Assembly (NCBI GenBank): GCA_902795215.1
Contig: CADBKG010000002.1
Coordinates: forward strand, 2,318 to 66,317
Length of the DNA: 64,000 bases
Direction of reading: 5' to 3'
From: an uncultured Erysipelotrichaceae bacterium
GTDB taxonomy: Bacteria > Bacillota_I > Bacilli_A > RF39 > UBA660
The notes under the pieces were generated by a model. It was not told the origin of the DNA. It did not search any database and was given only the letters and a program-made list of their open reading frames with translations. This document shows, piece by piece, positions 2,780-28,522 of the stretch; positions within the stretch are counted from its first letter, which is position 1, and every line of letters starts with the position of its first letter. A program made the position numbers and the translations under genes.

Positions 2780-4117
2780 CTACTTTCCTATACAAAATCT
2801 TGAAAATAATTCATCTAGTAAATCTTCTTTGTAGTTTTCACCTAATATTTCACCTAAATTATTCTTAGCACTTTCTATATCTATTGTTATAACATCAACT
2901 GGGATATTTTCTTTTAAACCTTGTAATGCTTTTTTTAGTGAGTTATCAGCTTTTTTAATAAGTGATAGTTGTCTTGCATTAGATATATAAGTCATATCTT
3001 TATTTATATTAGTATTAGATTCTATTTCTTTTATAATTGCTTTTTTTAGATCATCTAGACCATTTGTTTCTTTGGCATTTCCAGTTATACCTTCTATATT
3101 TAGTTTTTTGTTTAAATCGTTTTTATTTATAAATATAATATGGTTTTTAGTTTTTACTTTTTCTATTAATTCTTTTTCATCCTCTATTAGTTTTCTTGAT
3201 CCATCTAGTACTAATATTACTAAATCTGCATCATTTAACTTTTCTAAAGACTTATCTACCCCTATTTTTTCAACAATATCTTTTGTTTCTCTTATTCCTG
3301 CGGTATCTATAAAGTTAATCATAATTCCATTAAGTATGATTCTACCCTCAACAATATCTCTTGTTGTACCTTCTATGTCTGTAACTATTGCTTTATTTTC
3401 TTCAAGTAATGCATTTAAAATACTACTCTTACCAACGTTTGGTGCGCCTATAATTGCTACATCTAAACCATTTTTGATTATTTTTCCAGTTTTACTTTCT
3501 TTAATTAATTCATCGAATTTTTCTGTTATTTTTTCAAGTGCAATTATAGCTTTTTCATTAGTTATATCTTCTATATCTTCATATTCTGGATAATCTATGT
3601 TTACTTCAATATTTGCTTCTAAAGCAAGTAATTCTTTTTTTACTTCTCTTATAATACTTGAAAGTTTACCTGTTAGGTTATTAACTGATAAACTTCTTGC
3701 ATTTTCTGTTTCAGCATTTATAACATCTATTACAGATTCTGCTTTTATTAAGTCTATTCTTCCATTTAAAAATGCTCTTTTGGTAAATTCTCCTGGTTCT
3801 GCTTCTCTGCATCCAATTAATAATAGTATTTCTAATATTTTGTTTGTAACTGCTATTCCACCATGGGAATTGATTTCTACAATATTCTCTTTTGTATAAG
3901 TTTTAGGAGCGCGCATTATAGAAACTAGCACTTCATCAATTATTTCGTTATTATATACAATATGACCATAATTAATAGTATTACTATCTACTTTTGTTAA
4001 GTCTTTTCCTTTAAATATAGAGTTTACTAACTTAATAGAATCATTACCACTAACCCTAATAATTGATATTCCCCCTACTCCAACTGCAGTTGAAATTGCG
4101 CATATAGTATCTTCCAT
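2780..4117 (-). CDS. mnmE: tRNA modification GTPase MnmE (TrmE)
   Basis: DTICAIST, GAPNVGKSS, DTAGIR, C-terminal FCIGK. Confidence 0.98.
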   Translation of the reverse strand: MEDTICAISTAVGVGGISIIRVSGNDSIKLVNSIFKGKDLTKVDSNTINYGHIVYNNEIIDEVLVSIMRAPKTYTKENIVEINSHGGIAVTNKILEILLLIGCREAEPGEFTKRAFLNGRIDLIKAESVIDVINAETENARSLSVNNLTGKLSSIIREVKKELLALEANIEVNIDYPEYEDIEDITNEKAIIALEKITEKFDELIKESKTGKIIKNGLDVAIIGAPNVGKSSILNALLEENKAIVTDIEGTTRDIVEGRIILNGIMINFIDTAGIRETKDIVEKIGVDKSLEKLNDADLVILVLDGSRKLIEDEKELIEKVKTKNHIIFINKNDLNKKLNIEGITGNAKETNGLDDLKKAIIKEIESNTNINKDMTYISNARQLSLIKKADNSLKKALQGLKENIPVDVITIDIESAKNNLGEILGENYKEDLLDELFSRFCIGK

Positions 4118-16020: not shown

Positions 16021-16078
16021 TATTTCCCGGGAAATATTTTAGGGGTACCCCCTCCTTGTGAAACCAGGTACAACCACG
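16021..16078. repeat. composite repeat copy A: Noc-box palindrome + GGGGTACCCC palindrome + conserved tail
   Basis: TATTTCCCGGGAAATA 16021-16036; GGGGTACCCC 16042-16051; tail gaaaccaggtacaacc. Confidence 0.88.
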
Positions 16079-16120: not shown

Positions 16121-16177
16121 TATTTCCCGGGAAATAATCCAGGGGTACCCCCTAGCTGGAACACTAGGTGCAACCGT
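16121..16177. repeat. composite repeat copy B
   Basis: TATTTCCCGGGAAATA 16121-16136; GGGGTACCCC 16142-16151; tail ctagctggaacactaggtgcaacc. Confidence 0.88.
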
Positions 16178-16219: not shown

Positions 16220-16235
16220 TATTTCCCAGGAAATA
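16220..16235. promoter_or_regulatory. Noc-box-like palindrome (one mismatch), 8 bp from parS
   Basis: TATTTCCCAGGAAATA. Confidence 0.7.
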
Positions 16236-16243
16236 AAAAACTA

Positions 16244-16259
16244 TGTTTCACGTGAAACA
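16244..16259. promoter_or_regulatory. parS site 1
   Basis: TGTTTCACGTGAAACA, perfect ParB/Spo0J consensus palindrome. Confidence 0.95.
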
Positions 16260-16317: not shown

Positions 16318-16424
16318 AAAAAAATGCACCCATCTAGTAGATAGGTGCAACAGAAGGGCAAGATTTCAACTTGCATCTCTTATATTATTATAAGTGTTTT
16401 CACTCGTAAACTACTCTCCTGTGC
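16318..16424 (-). ncRNA. putative orphan sRNA / micro-ORF transcript (about 107 nt; encodes MKTLIII at 16403-16380)
   Basis: extended -10 TGCTATAAT (16438-16430), start near G16424, multibranched fold, terminator TGCACC...GGTGCA plus T-tract ending near 16318. Confidence 0.55.
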
Positions 16425-16498
16425 AAGTTATTATAGCATATATTTTCTTTTTATTAAAACAAATAATATAAAATATATGTTTATTTATAAAATTATGA

Positions 16499-16514
16499 TG
16501 TTTCACGTGAAACA
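16499..16514. promoter_or_regulatory. parS site 2
   Basis: TGTTTCACGTGAAACA. Confidence 0.95.
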
Positions 16515-16695
16515 TCTATAGTGGTATTTAACTACCTGCTAAAAACTGTAATTATACTGCAAAATATCAAATAACAAGATGATTGTTAATTGCTATTAGT
16601 GTAATAAAATAATGGGCAATATTGTAAATGGTCATGTTTAAAAAGTTTAAATTATTATATATGTTTATTATATTATGGTTTTTTGTTAAAATTTA

Positions 16696-16773: not shown

Positions 16774-16830
16774 TATTTCCCGGGAAATAATCCGGGGGGT
16801 ACCCCCTAGCTAGAACACTAATTACAACCG
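16774..16830. repeat. composite repeat copy D
   Basis: TATTTCCCGGGAAATA 16774-16789; GGGGGGTACCCCC 16794-16806; tail ctagctagaacactaattacaacc. Confidence 0.88.
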
Positions 16831-16972: not shown

Positions 16973-16978
16973 TAAAAA

Positions 16979-17049
16979 GCACAACGGGCGATTATTGAAA
17001 CTGGTCAGGACTGGAAGGTAGCAGCCATAAAATTTGAACTCGTGTGTGC
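16979..17049 (+). ncRNA. ffs: signal recognition particle RNA (small 4.5S type, about 71 nt)
   Basis: domain IV motif GGTCAGG-ACT-GGAA-GGT-AGCAGCC; closing stem GCAC/GTGC and ACGGG/CTCGT; T-tract after; next to tadA-dnaX as in Bacillus. Confidence 0.9.
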
Positions 17050-17068
17050 TTTTTTGTTGGAGGGAAAT

Positions 17069-17503
17069 ATGGAAGAAAAAATACTAAAAAAACTATTTCA
17101 GTTAGCTAACAAATCATATAATAAAAAAGAATTTCCGGTTGGAGCAATTATATTTGACGACAACTTCAATATTATAAGCACTGGATATAATAGAAGGAAT
17201 AAGAGTAATATAACTATTGATCATGCTGAAATAACTGCGATTACAAAAGCTAACAAAAGACTCAATTCATGGAGGTTAAATGATCTATGTATGATAGTTA
17301 CCCTTGAACCTTGTGATATGTGCAAAACAGTTATTAAAGAAGCAAGATTAAAAGAAATATATTATATTGTTCCAAGATTAAAATACAAAAAACAATATAA
17401 AAATATAATTATCAAACAATACAAGATAAAAAGCGATAAAATCAATAAACAAATAGAAGAATATAGTCAAAAAATATCTACTTTTTTTAATGAGAAACGC
17501 TAG
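17069..17503 (+). CDS. tadA: tRNA adenosine(34) deaminase TadA
   Basis: EFPVGAII, HAE...TLEPCDMC zinc motif; start ATG 17069 after GGAGG. Confidence 0.9.
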   Translation: MEEKILKKLFQLANKSYNKKEFPVGAIIFDDNFNIISTGYNRRNKSNITIDHAEITAITKANKRLNSWRLNDLCMIVTLEPCDMCKTVIKEARLKEIYYIVPRLKYKKQYKNIIIKQYKIKSDKINKQIEEYSQKISTFFNEKR

Positions 17504-23000: not shown

Positions 23001-26000
23001 AATTTATAACTGATAAATTTATATATGATGATTCTAAGGAAATAAGTGGGTTAACCCCAGAATTAATTGCTTTATATGTAGATAATTATTTTAAATCTAA
23101 TAATGAAAATGTTGTCTTGCTTACAAGTAATATGTATGAAGCAAATAATTATTTCAAATTATTACAGGAGTATAATGACGATACCCTGTTTTTTCCAATG
23201 GATGATTTTATAACATCGATGGCAGTAGCGGTATCTCCAGATTTTAAAATAAAAAGGTTAGATACTTTAGATAAAATAAATAGTGAAAATAAGAAACATA
23301 TTATTGTTACATCACTAATGGGATATTTAAAATTTTTACCTAGCACTACGGAAAAACAGTGTCTCACAGTTACCCCCCTCCCCCAAAATATTTCCCGGGA
23401 AATAATTTTAGACACATTAGATGAGTTTGGATATCATAGAGATTCACTTGTAACATCAACTGGTGAATACGCAGTTAGAGGATTTGTAATTGATGTTTTT
23501 CCAATAGGCTATGATCATCCATTTAGAATTGAATTTTTTGGTGATGAAATAGAAGAAACAAAAGAATTTGATGAAAATACCCAGCTTACACTAAAAAAAG
23601 TAGAAAGGTTCGATTTAAAAAGAGTAAATGAAACAATTAACGAGGAAACAAGTTCATTAATGGATTATGTTAATAATGAATCTTTATTTATTATAGACAA
23701 TAATCAACTAGAAATAGCATATAAAATGCTTTCTGAAGAAATAGTCGCATATAATGAAAAAAAAGAAATTACTACTAAACACATGTATGAATTAAATGAG
23801 ATAAAGGCCGGGAAAACATTTAAAGTAAATTCTCTTAACTTATATAAAACTAAAAATCAAATTGTTTATAATTCTAAAACTATCACTAATTTTAATAGTA
23901 ATTTTGATAATTTAAAAAGATATGCATTGGAATCTTTGTTATCTAAGACTGTTTTATTCGCATTGTCAAACGATAAACAAATAGAAAGAATTAAAGAATT
24001 ATTTGATGAGGTATATTTAAATCCTAAAAAAATAGTGGATAACAAAATAAATATTATTAAAAGCAACATAAAAAATGGCTTTATATTTGAAGACTATATT
24101 ATAATTGGACCTTATGACATTGAATCATTAAAGACTAAGAACGTAAAATATAAAAATCCTATTAAAATGGGACATAAAATTAAGAACTTTGATGAACTTA
24201 CAATTGGAGATTATATTGTACATGAATCATATGGAATTGGTATATATAATGGTATAAAAACTCTTAAAAAAGGAGAATATTTAAATGATTATATTCAGCT
24301 TTTATATGCCGACAATGATAAAGTATATGTATCAGTAGATAATATTGGTAAGTTGTATAAGTATTCATCAAAGTATTCTTCTGTTAAATTAAATAAGTTA
24401 AATAGTCCAGCTTGGACTAAAAAGAAGCTTGCGGCAAGACAAAAAATAGATGATATAAAGGAAGAATTAATCAAGCTATATCAAGAAAGATCAAAAATTA
24501 AGAAAGATAAAATGAAAGACTATCCTGAAGAAGAAGCTTTTGCTTTTGAATTCCCATATGAACTTACTAAAGATCAAGAAAAATGTATATATGAAATTAA
24601 TGAGGATTTAAAAAGTACAATTCCTATGGATAGATTATTGTGCGGTGATGTTGGTTACGGAAAAACAGAGGTAGCTTTTAGGGCCATGTTTAAAACAGTA
24701 TTAAATGGTGGATGTGTAGCGTATCTTTGTCCAACAACTATTCTTTCTAGGCAACAATATGAAAACGCTTTAGAAAGATTTAAGAATTATCCAGTAAATA
24801 TAGCATTACTAAATAGATACACATCACAAGCAGAAACAAGCAAAATAATTGAAAAACTAAAAACAGGCAAGATAGATATATTATTTGGAACACATAAACT
24901 TTTAAATGATAAAATAGATTATAAGAATTTAAAACTACTCGTAGTAGATGAAGAACAAAGATTTGGAGTTAAACATAAAGAAAAAATTAAAAGTTTAAAA
25001 AATGATATAAACGTGCTTACACTATCTGCAACTCCAATACCAAGAACACTAAAGATGGCTATGAGCGGGTTAAGAGGATTATCTATCCTTGATACACCAC
25101 CAGTCAATAGATATCCGATAGAAACTTATGTAATAGAGGAAAACGAACTTATTATTAGAGACGCTATTTATAAAGAGTTATCAAGAGATGGACAAACTTA
25201 TATTCTTGTAAACAATATTGAAGAAATGCAAGCTTTGGTAACAAAAATTAAAGAATTAGTACCAACTGCAAGCGTAGTCGGTGCGCATGGTCAAATGAAT
25301 AGTAATGATTTAAATGGAATCATGCAAGACTTTGTTAAAGGTAATTATGATATTTTGGTCTGCACAACAATTATTGAAACCGGTATAGATATACCTAATG
25401 TAAATACTATTATAATTATTGATTCAGATAACTTTGGTTTATCCCAGCTTTACCAAATAAGAGGAAGAGTAGGTAGAAGTGATAAAATAGCATATGCCTA
25501 CCTTATGTATAAACCATCTAAAATACTAACTGAAACTGCAACAAAAAGATTAGAATCAATAAAAGAATTCACAGAACTAGGTAGTGGTTATAAAATAGCT
25601 TTAAGAGATTTATCAATCAGAGGCGCCGGAGACATACTTGGAAAAGAACAAGCGGGATTTATAGAAGCAATTGGACTAGATTTATATACAAAACTAATTA
25701 ATGAAGAAATATCTGGTGAAAAAGAAGAAGAAACAGAAAAGAAAATGTTAAATATTTCTACTCATATAGATGATAATTACACAGAAGATGAATCAATAAA
25801 AATAGAAATACATAAAATGATTAATGAAATCAAATCAAAAAAAGATTTAACAAAAGTTAAAGAAGAACTTGAAGATAGATTTGGAAATGTTCCAGAAGAA
25901 ATAGAAATATACATGATAGAAAAGTGTATAGAAAATATCTTTGAAGAATTAAATATTAAAAATATAATTCAAACAACAAGAGAAATAGAAATAAGCTTGC

Positions 26001-26718: not shown

Positions 26719-26750
26719 AATTAACAAACAATTGTGTTATATTACATTTA

Positions 26751-26945
26751 TTAAGCGGTGAAGAAAAGAGTAGATTATAAGAGTTTTAAGAGAGACTTTG
26801 GTTGGTGAAAAAAGTTAAACTCGAGTTTTTGAACATGGTTTTGGAGCTTAAACGTAATTCTTGCGTTAAAAGAAAAAAGAGCATGGGAACATGAATTAAG
26901 GTGGTACCGCGGGTTAATCTCGTCCTTTAGTTCGTGTTTTTTTTA
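26751..26945 (+). promoter_or_regulatory. T-box riboswitch (Met specifier) upstream of metG
   Basis: AGAGAG and GGTTGGTGAAA stem I motifs; specifier ATG at 26835-26837; T-box AATTAAGGTGGTACCGCG at 26894-26911; antiterminator closes with CTCGTCCTT. Confidence 0.9.
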
Positions 26946-28488: not shown

Positions 28489-28522
28489 TATTTCCCGGGA
28501 AATATTTTGGGGGTACCCCCTA
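28489..28522. repeat. composite repeat copy E (Noc-box + GGGGGTACCCCC) between metG and tatD
   Basis: TATTTCCCGGGAAATA 28489-28504; GGGGGTACCCCC 28509-28520. Confidence 0.88.

Follow-up and report, generated by a model that had tools for sequence, protein, structure and literature searches.

A stand-alone gene for a non-coding RNA lies on the minus strand of positions 16318-16457 in a 64,000-nt stretch of contig CADBKG010000002.1, from an uncultured Erysipelotrichaceae bacterium; this whole stretch is referred to below as the window. The RNA is a divergent member of the SpF41 (RF02435) superfamily of small RNAs (sRNAs), and its fold is a tRNA core without the anticodon arm, with a variable hairpin in the place of that arm. 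We lean, if cautiously, towards a reading in which this RNA, stable and of ~100 nt, would act in trans through its tRNA-like shape, by protein binding and not by base-pairing or translation. The positions of the features are collected in Table 1.

The promoter of the cassette is predicted to be a near-consensus extended -10 promoter, with a score of 10/12 with the extended -10 (TG at 16438-16437, TATAAT at 16435-16430). The predicted transcript of ~107 nt runs from 16424 to 16318, with the +1 predicted at G16424 (to A16422). The extended -10, the minus-strand RNA and the intrinsic terminator had been described in a first-pass annotation of this DNA, and all are found where it placed them. Its description of a self-contained unit that has its own promoter and terminator and attenuates no gene also holds; on the strand of the RNA nothing is found before the convergent gyrA. 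The RNA is present as a single copy in the window.

In a permissive Rfam scan, RF02435 (SpF41_sRNA) matches exactly 16318-16424(-), over model positions 1-105 of 105. The Rfam search that had been proposed gives a full-length match, but one of 37.8 bits (E = 4.3e-4), which does not reach the gathering cut-off of 52 bits; copies from Streptococcus, Gemella and Finegoldia score 89-115 bits with the same model. At gathering thresholds, only the signal recognition particle (SRP) RNA and a T-box were found in the window. Weaker Rfam matches (tsr26, skipping-rope and others) were set aside, with E >= 1, and a BLASTN search of the window RNA against phages gave 26-nt seeds only. A covariance model made from relatives, which had also been proposed, was built as model R2 without the window RNA or its AT-rich relatives. 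With this model the window RNA is found at 16348-16424(-), with 51.3 bits and E ~5e-14.

The window RNA displays the architecture of RF02435, i.e., a closing helix, two enclosed hairpins and a terminator hairpin, and it has both the junction GAGUAGU.UA..AG.GA and the 7-nt UU.RAAU loop on a 5-bp stem. The closing helix, the two hairpins, the terminator, the junction, the T-loop hairpin and the stand-alone promoter are all shared with SpF41 (F41 or srn277 of Streptococcus pneumoniae TIGR4). It should be noted that the window RNA is of the U19-G56 / GUUU-AAAC subtype and comes from an uncultured rumen member of the Bacilli, not from Streptococcus. The location also differs. SpF41 is found in a phage or satellite, and a location in a Streptococcus prophage or satellite prophage is typical of RF02435, whereas the window copy is chromosomal, between gyrA and ffs and between parS sites, with no phage genes nearby.

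Relatives were collected with an exact-pattern probe composed of motifs common to the Rfam consensus and the window RNA. The probe yielded 29 IMG/VR loci, 36 GTDB loci and 13 metagenome loci, the last with a narrower window-type pattern. Apart from six, these loci are clearly relatives and have the helices of the family, a promoter of their own and a terminator. The remaining six (L019, L020, L044, L050, L052 and L053) lack the family architecture and were rejected as chance pattern matches; three of them score 19-22 bits with model R1 and the other three are not listed at E <= 0.01. Independently of the pattern, copies were found at L089-L092, L075b and L066b. Hosts of the relatives are Streptococcus, Gemella, Finegoldia, one Lachnospiraceae and a metagenome-assembled genome (MAG) deposited as uncultured Tenericutes bacterium. 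Among 46 unique relatives, a -10-like T(A/G)nA(A/T)T hexamer stands 5′ of the RNA in 42, mostly as TGnTATAAT and mostly 2-8 nt from the RNA, and a hairpin with a T-run stands 3′ of the core in 35. Two or three members of different subtypes often stand in tandem or near one another, e.g., at L082:1820-2165 (satellite Javan160), L066:4043-4389, L075:1125-1706 and L090:3381-3565.

The 107-nt RNA has a minimum free energy (MFE) of -31.5 kcal/mol, with z = -3.96, and none of 200 shuffled sequences folds as well. Its closing helix pairs ACAGGAG (16422-16416) with CUUCUGU (16356-16350) and has an additional G16414-C16357 pair. This helix and the enclosed hairpins CUUAUA/UAUAAG (16394-16379) and GCAAG/CUUGC (16374-16358) had been proposed in the first-pass annotation; they are present and correspond to the consensus structure of the family. 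In that consensus the closing helix is followed by an invariant U and A, the equivalents of U8 and A9, and then by a D-stem of 4 bp, G-U-N-U with N-N-A/G-C/U, whose loop has the form A..A-G-(G/U)-G-A. The D-loop of the window RNA is ACGAGUGA (16407-16400). On the 3′ side of the D-arm come one purine, the variable hairpin, a 4-nt linker that is usually AGAU or AGGC, and the T-arm, which has a 5-bp stem with an invariant final G-C and a 7-nt loop of sequence UU(C/G/A)RAAU.

This structure is supported by covariation. In 33 hand-checked sequences, 90.6% of cells are paired, as against 39-48% when the partners are slid, and both-side changes are found in 19 of 24 pairs. The check for conservation in relatives that had been called for comes out positive: across 51 distinct model-aligned sequences the structure is kept, with 93% of positions paired, compensatory changes in 18 of 22 pairs and a covariation score that none of 500 shuffles attains. 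The closing helix covaries family-wide, with both-side changes in all seven of its seven outer pairs. The third pair of the D-stem (12-23) is A-U in 30 sequences, U-A in 20 and G-C in one. In the T-stem, 98% paired, four of the five pairs show compensatory changes while the equivalent of G53-C61 is invariant, and the U54, U55 and A58 equivalents of the T-loop are conserved. The 19-56 elbow pair, U16402-G16367 in the window, is paired in 100% of cases and covaries (G-C 16, U-G 16, U-A 1), a pattern that would be expected of the G19-C56 elbow pair of tRNA.

The variable arm is also constrained at its base, where four basal pairs are 98% paired, all of them with compensatory changes. In relatives it can be as small as a 4-bp stem with a 4-nt loop or hold inserts of ~95-110 nt, as in phage Javan91 (L083:2711-2891) and satellite Javan160. 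Because the variable arm ranges so widely, the elbow and the acceptor-like helix are the conserved, and presumably the functional, part of the RNA.

When a standard anticodon arm is grafted in silico onto the family members, ARAGORN calls a tRNA in 31 of 33, the window copy included. Controls gave tRNA calls in 0 of 33 ungrafted sequences and in 0 of 330 with shuffled flanks. The family model in turn matches genuine tRNAs weakly (tRNA-Gly, 22.3 bits; tRNA-Pro, 21.3 bits). Like a tRNA, the window RNA combines an acceptor-like stem and U8 with a D-arm (equivalents of A14, G18 and A21), a 4-nt variable loop and a T-arm (equivalents of G53-C61, U54, U55 and A58). It differs from a tRNA in that there is no anticodon arm of 5-bp stem and 7-nt loop, a 6-bp stem with an AUAA loop being found in its place; in that no CCA is encoded, the 3′ side leading directly into the terminator; in the bulge and extra pair at the acceptor/T-junction; and in the attached terminator hairpin.

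Transfer-messenger RNA (tmRNA) and the bacterial Y RNA YrlA, RNAs of bacteria or phages, keep the tRNA elbow and acceptor with the anticodon arm replaced, and both act through tRNA-binding proteins. The ends of YrlA form a Ro-binding stem, not an acceptor stem, and YrlA genes adjoin rsr (Ro60). The tRNA-like domains of bacterial Y RNAs were reportedly treated by Sim and Wolin in 2018. The window RNA resembles tmRNA in the replacement of the anticodon arm, but it has no tag open reading frame (ORF) or pseudoknots, is ~107 nt long and receives no tmRNA call from ARAGORN. In contrast to those of YrlA, its ends form an acceptor-like helix, and the genes in its local neighbourhood are gyrA, ffs, tadA and dnaX, not rsr.

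The conserved pairing also bears on how several short strings within the RNA are to be read. The first-pass annotation had taken AGGAG for a sequestered Shine-Dalgarno (SD) sequence, CCCUUCU for an anti-SD seed, and a GTG for the start of a micro-ORF, MKTLIII. However, AGGAG belongs to the 5′ strand of the closing helix, where relatives have GGCAAG, GAUGG, ACGC and other sequences, and the idea of SD sequestration is not sustained. CCCUUCU forms the opposite, 3′ strand of this helix, and the two strands covary; in relatives its place is taken by CGCUUGCC, CGCCAUUA or CAAUAGC, which does not support a seed. That the RNA is a base-pairing sRNA with CCCUUCU as the anti-SD seed on mRNAs such as metG and rpsR is considered very unlikely. 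The heptamer is complementary to the SD-like AGAAGGG, of which there are nine in the window, but it is paired in both the MFE and centroid folds, and in no relative is its sequence conserved, only its pairing. The nine occurrences of AGAAGGG compare with 4.2 +/- 2 expected, but one of them belongs to the RNA gene, and an excess of SD-like words would be expected in any case; the enrichment is not meaningful. Thus of the earlier proposal of a trans-acting sRNA, the trans role is plausible through the tRNA-like fold, and the pairing seed, with its sequence not conserved, falls.

The string encoding MKTLIII is present, with GGAG 12 nt 5′ of the GTG and an in-frame stop, and it could be read as a regulated mRNA for this 7-codon peptide, the SD being masked by the closing helix. 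Such an mRNA is extremely improbable. The GTG is part of the D-loop motif AGUGA, which is AGGGA, without a start codon, in 15 of 31 relatives. In relatives that have the GTG, the ORF varies from 4 to 58 codons and the products are unrelated; GGAG is absent in many relatives, and the distance from GGAG to the GTG is long. Small ORFs that overlap the gene or stand on the opposite strand were rejected; those on the opposite strand look like low-complexity AT-rich sequence. The plus strand ORF 16345-16521 (58 aa) overlaps the RNA gene on the opposite strand and might be the toxin of a type I toxin-antitoxin pair with the RNA as its antisense. This is given virtually no weight, since the translation looks low-complexity and AT-rich and passes through a parS site, and the conservation found in relatives is that of RNA pairing, with no protein. 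A caution that follows for annotation is that SD-like and start-codon-like strings within structured RNAs can be misread as micro-ORFs.

In phages the RNA occupies a fixed position. In the Streptococcus phages Javan115, phiNJ2 and Javan91 it is found directly upstream of terS, on the same strand. The gene 5′ of the phage RNA is phrog_9479, of unknown function, and before that stands the gene of a ParB_N/DUF4417 protein. The same order is found in L069, a high-GC phage contig from a metagenome, where the RNA is upstream of terL and the module closes with terL and portal genes. In 8 of 8 phage loci examined, the order is phrog_9479, embedded promoter, RNA, terminator and packaging genes. Four distant phrog_9479 homologues, picked by protein similarity alone (from a Clostridium MAG, an Aerococcaceae member and two metagenome contigs), also have the RNA at 4/4 loci, in one or two copies that begin within the last codons of phrog_9479.

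The sigma-A promoter of the phage RNA is encoded in the conserved C-terminus of phrog_9479, where M-V-(D/E)-K corresponds to the -35 sequence TTGA(A/T)A and W-Y-N to the extended -10 sequence TGGTATAAT; the stop codon TAG of phrog_9479 falls in the invariant GAGUAGU of the RNA. A strong terminator is found 3′ of the phage RNA, with 27-35 nt from its T-run to the next start codon in L089-L091 (3/4 loci). Because this terminator stands directly before them, the packaging genes must be reached by read-through.

The phrog_9479 protein is ~136 aa long and 50-98% identical from Streptococcus to Clostridium phages (P0121 and relatives). It has an invariant N-terminal MGGRGASSG and a His-rich motif, HxH..PHTHHGYxHxE. 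No match was found in Pfam or NCBIfam or by a sequence search of the PDB, and its AlphaFold model (mean predicted local distance difference test score 77) gave no match to the PDB with Foldseek. Paralogues with the phrog_9479 N-terminus flank the RNA in L069, L090 and L091. The neighbour of the RNA in satellites, phrog_3511, is unrelated to phrog_9479. A contig labelled as a Bacteroides thetaiotaomicron MAG (L033) carries a phage segment identical to those of L007 and L079, with a Bacillota-type RNA and phrog_9479, and its Bacteroides label is probably a binning artefact. The literature search brought up nothing relevant on a tRNA-like, antitermination or DUF4417 explanation, and, as far as that search shows, both the tRNA-mimic architecture and the phrog_9479-RNA-terminase module are undescribed.

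Antitermination RNAs include the lambda pR′-tR′ "6S" leader with Q, HK022 put and lambda nut. The phage relatives share with the lambda Q-pR′-tR′ type a regulator-sized gene, a constitutive promoter, a short terminated leader, a terminator and a late or packaging operon, and in both a terminated leader accumulates as a stable small RNA. There is, however, no sequence or structural similarity to the lambda and HK022 RNAs, the family leader being tRNA-shaped, and an antitermination role of the family would be an analogy from layout. This layout is found in the phage relatives and not in the window, where no operon stands behind the RNA; the candidate antiterminator linked in the phages, phrog_9479, is absent from the window, and its fold matches no solved structure. 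P4 CI RNA and the P1/P7 c4 RNA, small RNAs of phages and satellites, also have tRNA-like features; RNase P matures them, and they control the expression of phage genes through antisense pairing with conserved target repeats. Such target repeats are not seen here, and the scan of the window gave no match to the Rfam C4 family.

Copies without phrog_9479 are found in several settings. The gene was looked for, and is absent, in the window, at the other chromosomal copies and in satellites. Streptococcal satellite prophages carry the RNA without it, some as tandem arrays of subtypes, and Javan160 has three copies. Between satellite and phage copies of the same genus, the tRNA-like core is identical and the outer helix is different. 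The AT-rich relatives of the window copy, L034/L070, L072 and L077, are also orphans: the L034/L070 copy adjoins a membrane-protein gene, the L077 copy precedes a gene with an N-terminus that is Fic/Doc-like by eye only, and the L072 copy stands immediately downstream of a tRNA operon and another tRNA-like unit. The copies of the window, L077, L072 and L034 differ from one another by compensatory changes in the T-stem, the hairpin and the closing helix, which argues that the orphan fold is under selection.

The TIGR4 F41 RNA is itself a satellite-type orphan copy. F41 has been found in 4 of 385 pneumococcal genomes (PMC12323649). In S. pneumoniae, Northern blots confirm F41 as an sRNA of ~103 nt, and its deletion attenuates infection (PMC3395615). 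It is bound by the exonuclease Cbf1, which trims its 3′ end, and RNase Z is also in the pull-down (PMC7196914).

The pull-down of RNase Z by F41 (PMC7196914) would fit a processed tRNA-like substrate, one trimmed by RNase P and RNase Z to ~75 nt, supplied with CCA and possibly aminoacylated for non-ribosomal use. In the window copy, the 7-bp acceptor-like stem is followed by one unpaired U, and the L072 member would need tRNA-type processing because it stands directly after the tRNA operon and the tRNA-like unit. We regard this processing as quite improbable nevertheless. Mature F41 is ~103 nt, with the terminator hairpin retained and only the U-tail trimmed by Cbf1 (PMC7196914, PMC3395615); most members have a closing helix of more than 7 bp with an internal loop; and no synthetase identity element such as G3-U70 is conserved by eye in the aligned members, for which no dedicated scan was made. 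At L072 (24-678), a rumen-type contig, a tRNA operon (Met, Asp, Phe, Arg, Pro) with its terminator is followed by a new promoter, a 79-nt unit and the family member. The 79-nt unit is labelled tRNA-Ile(tat) by ARAGORN, but it has a 10-bp arm for an anticodon arm, and together with the family member it looks like two co-transcribed tRNA-like units.

It should also be considered that the window copy is a stranded cis-element, i.e., a promoter, leader and terminator captured from a phage late-operon antitermination switch and now transcribed without function in the cell. This is a sizeable possibility, albeit one we rank as the lesser. The constant order in the eight phage loci and the short distance from T-run to start codon in L089-L091 are what it would expect, the window copy has no downstream gene and is missing in four relatives examined, and one strain haplotype has uncompensated closing-helix changes. 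Independent capture from different phages could, moreover, mimic the compensatory pattern among orphans. On the other hand, the promoter, the terminator and every helix are intact in the window copy, and compensatory changes distinguish the orphans at four different chromosomal sites (window, L034/L070, L072, L077). The orphan copies kept by satellites have a core identical to the one in phage copies of the same genus, and deletion of the orphan F41 in TIGR4 gives a phenotype (PMC3395615).

Since the window copy has neither a partner gene nor downstream genes, there is nothing for it to regulate in cis. In the trans-acting role that we favour, its partner would be either a host protein that recognises the tRNA elbow and acceptor, such as a tRNA-handling factor, or a phage factor of the phrog_9479 type. 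An unlikely elaboration is that, in many temperate phages of Bacillota, the RNA is part of an undescribed late-gene read-through switch, with a constitutive promoter in the codons of phrog_9479 and with phrog_9479 as its factor, and that the satellite and chromosomal orphans are decoys. An orphan RNA would then soak up phrog_9479 and hamper late gene expression of the phage.

Several observations weigh against the trans-acting, tRNA-like reading. The native RNA is missed by tRNA finders: ARAGORN reports 0 genes in the window, and RF00005 gives no match at E <= 10. The bulge and extra pair in the closing helix are absent from tRNAs. Members were first found with a pattern in which the junction and T-loop motifs are fixed, and the conservation of these motifs is therefore partly circular. 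The phage synteny of promoter, RNA, terminator and late genes would better suit a cis-acting leader, and the orphan would then be functionless. RNase Z is pulled down by most csRNAs as well, so that its pull-down is not specific to F41. The window transcript is predicted from sequence, and the runs that hold the sequence (X21-X23) are low-depth contigs of unknown library type. Finally, in a haplotype found in contigs of runs X21 and X22, positions 16415, 16416 and 16419 are changed, all in the 5′ strand of the closing helix, and two of the changes, G->U, are uncompensated on the 3′ strand.

Other strain variants in the metagenome contigs are mostly structure-neutral, i.e., a wobble, a loop change, a bulge change and a wobble in the terminator (incl. 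16396, 16386, 16347). In expression data for relatives, one of four runs with the species label carries a divergent satellite copy, and the element is absent in the other three. At L055, among shallow contigs of possible RNA runs, one begins at the predicted +1, which an assembly branch point could explain.

The cassette lies in the 1-kb gyrA-ffs spacer, between two parS sites, with gyrB and gyrA upstream and the SRP RNA, tadA, dnaX, ybaB and recR downstream. The location in an array of parS and Noc-binding-site (NBS) sequences, noted in the first-pass annotation, is confirmed by three perfect parS sites and four NBS-like palindromes in the spacer. By its GyrA homologues, the organism falls near Candidatus Coprovivens, an uncultured gut lineage of Bacilli. 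In four relatives with GyrA identity of 74-85%, the order gyrA, parS/NBS, ffs, tadA, dnaX is kept, and the RNA cassette is absent from the syntenic spacer in 4/4, incl. the closest relatives retrieved, even with search filters off. Because these four keep the array without the RNA, the cassette is a lineage-specific insertion between two parS sites.

The NBS-like palindromes, ATTTCC(C/A)GGGAAAT, number six in the window, as compared with 0.2 expected, and are found at 16022-16035, 16122-16135, 16221-16234, 16775-16788, 23390-23403 and 28490-28503; the NBS/parS array is kept at the same spacer in relatives L085-L088. GC-rich palindromes, (C)TAGGGGGTACCCC(TGG), are found beside NBS sites at 16139-16155 and 16794-16806, and in relative L087 a similar string, GGGGGAGGGGG, adjoins an NBS. 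The SRP RNA at 16973-17058 (Rfam, 54.6 bits) extends over the GTG that is listed as the start of ORF 17042-17503. This ORF is probably tadA, by synteny with the dCMP_cyt_deam_1 genes of L085, L086 and L088, and because of the overlap its true start must be further downstream. A T-box leader (RF00230, 108.8 bits) is found at 26749-26930 on the plus strand.

Table 1. Features of the RNA cassette, the flanking parS sites and the phage module (positions in the window unless a locus is named).
Feature	Position	Strand	Basis or detail
sigma-A type promoter, extended -10	16430..16457	-	-35 TTAATA 16457-16452; 16-nt spacer; TGcTATAAT 16438-16430
tRNA-shaped core	16350..16424	-	RF02435 match; model R2 match; ARAGORN call after anticodon-arm graft
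closing helix, 5′ strand (ACAGGAG 16422-16416, bulged A16415, G16414)	16414..16422	-	pairs with 16357-16350
U8-A9 equivalents (16413-16412) and D-arm	16396..16413	-	stem GUUU 16411-16408 / AAAC 16399-16396
variable hairpin CUUAUA-AUAA-UAUAAG, replacing the anticodon arm	16379..16394	-	fold and covariation
variable-loop equivalent AGAU (16378-16375) and T-arm	16358..16378	-	GCAAG 16374-16370, loop UUGAAAU 16369-16363, CUUGC 16362-16358
closing helix, 3′ strand (C CUUCUGU)	16350..16357	-	pairing conserved in relatives, sequence not
intrinsic terminator	16318..16349	-	11-bp stem-loop 16349-16325, then T7 16324-16318
parS, terminator side	16244..16259	.	perfect TGTTTCACGTGAAACA; context only
parS, promoter side	16499..16514	.	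context only
module of ParB_N/DUF4417, phrog_9479, RNA(s), terminator, terS/terL/portal	L030:3737-4110; L032:3632-4106; L089-L092 near 3360-3520; L069:4579-5038

Until now SpF41/F41 has been listed solely as a pneumococcal "virulence sRNA", strain-specific and of unknown mechanism. The family is shown here to be spread across Bacillota, including a sub-threshold relative in an uncultured rumen bacterium. It gains an architecture, that of a tRNA without the anticodon arm and with a covarying elbow pair, as well as a fixed position in phages, from phrog_9479 to RNA to terminase. Hypotheses of phage late-gene control, helper-satellite interference and tRNA mimicry are thereby opened, and if the orphan copies do serve as decoys, they would represent an RNA-only mechanism of interference or defence.

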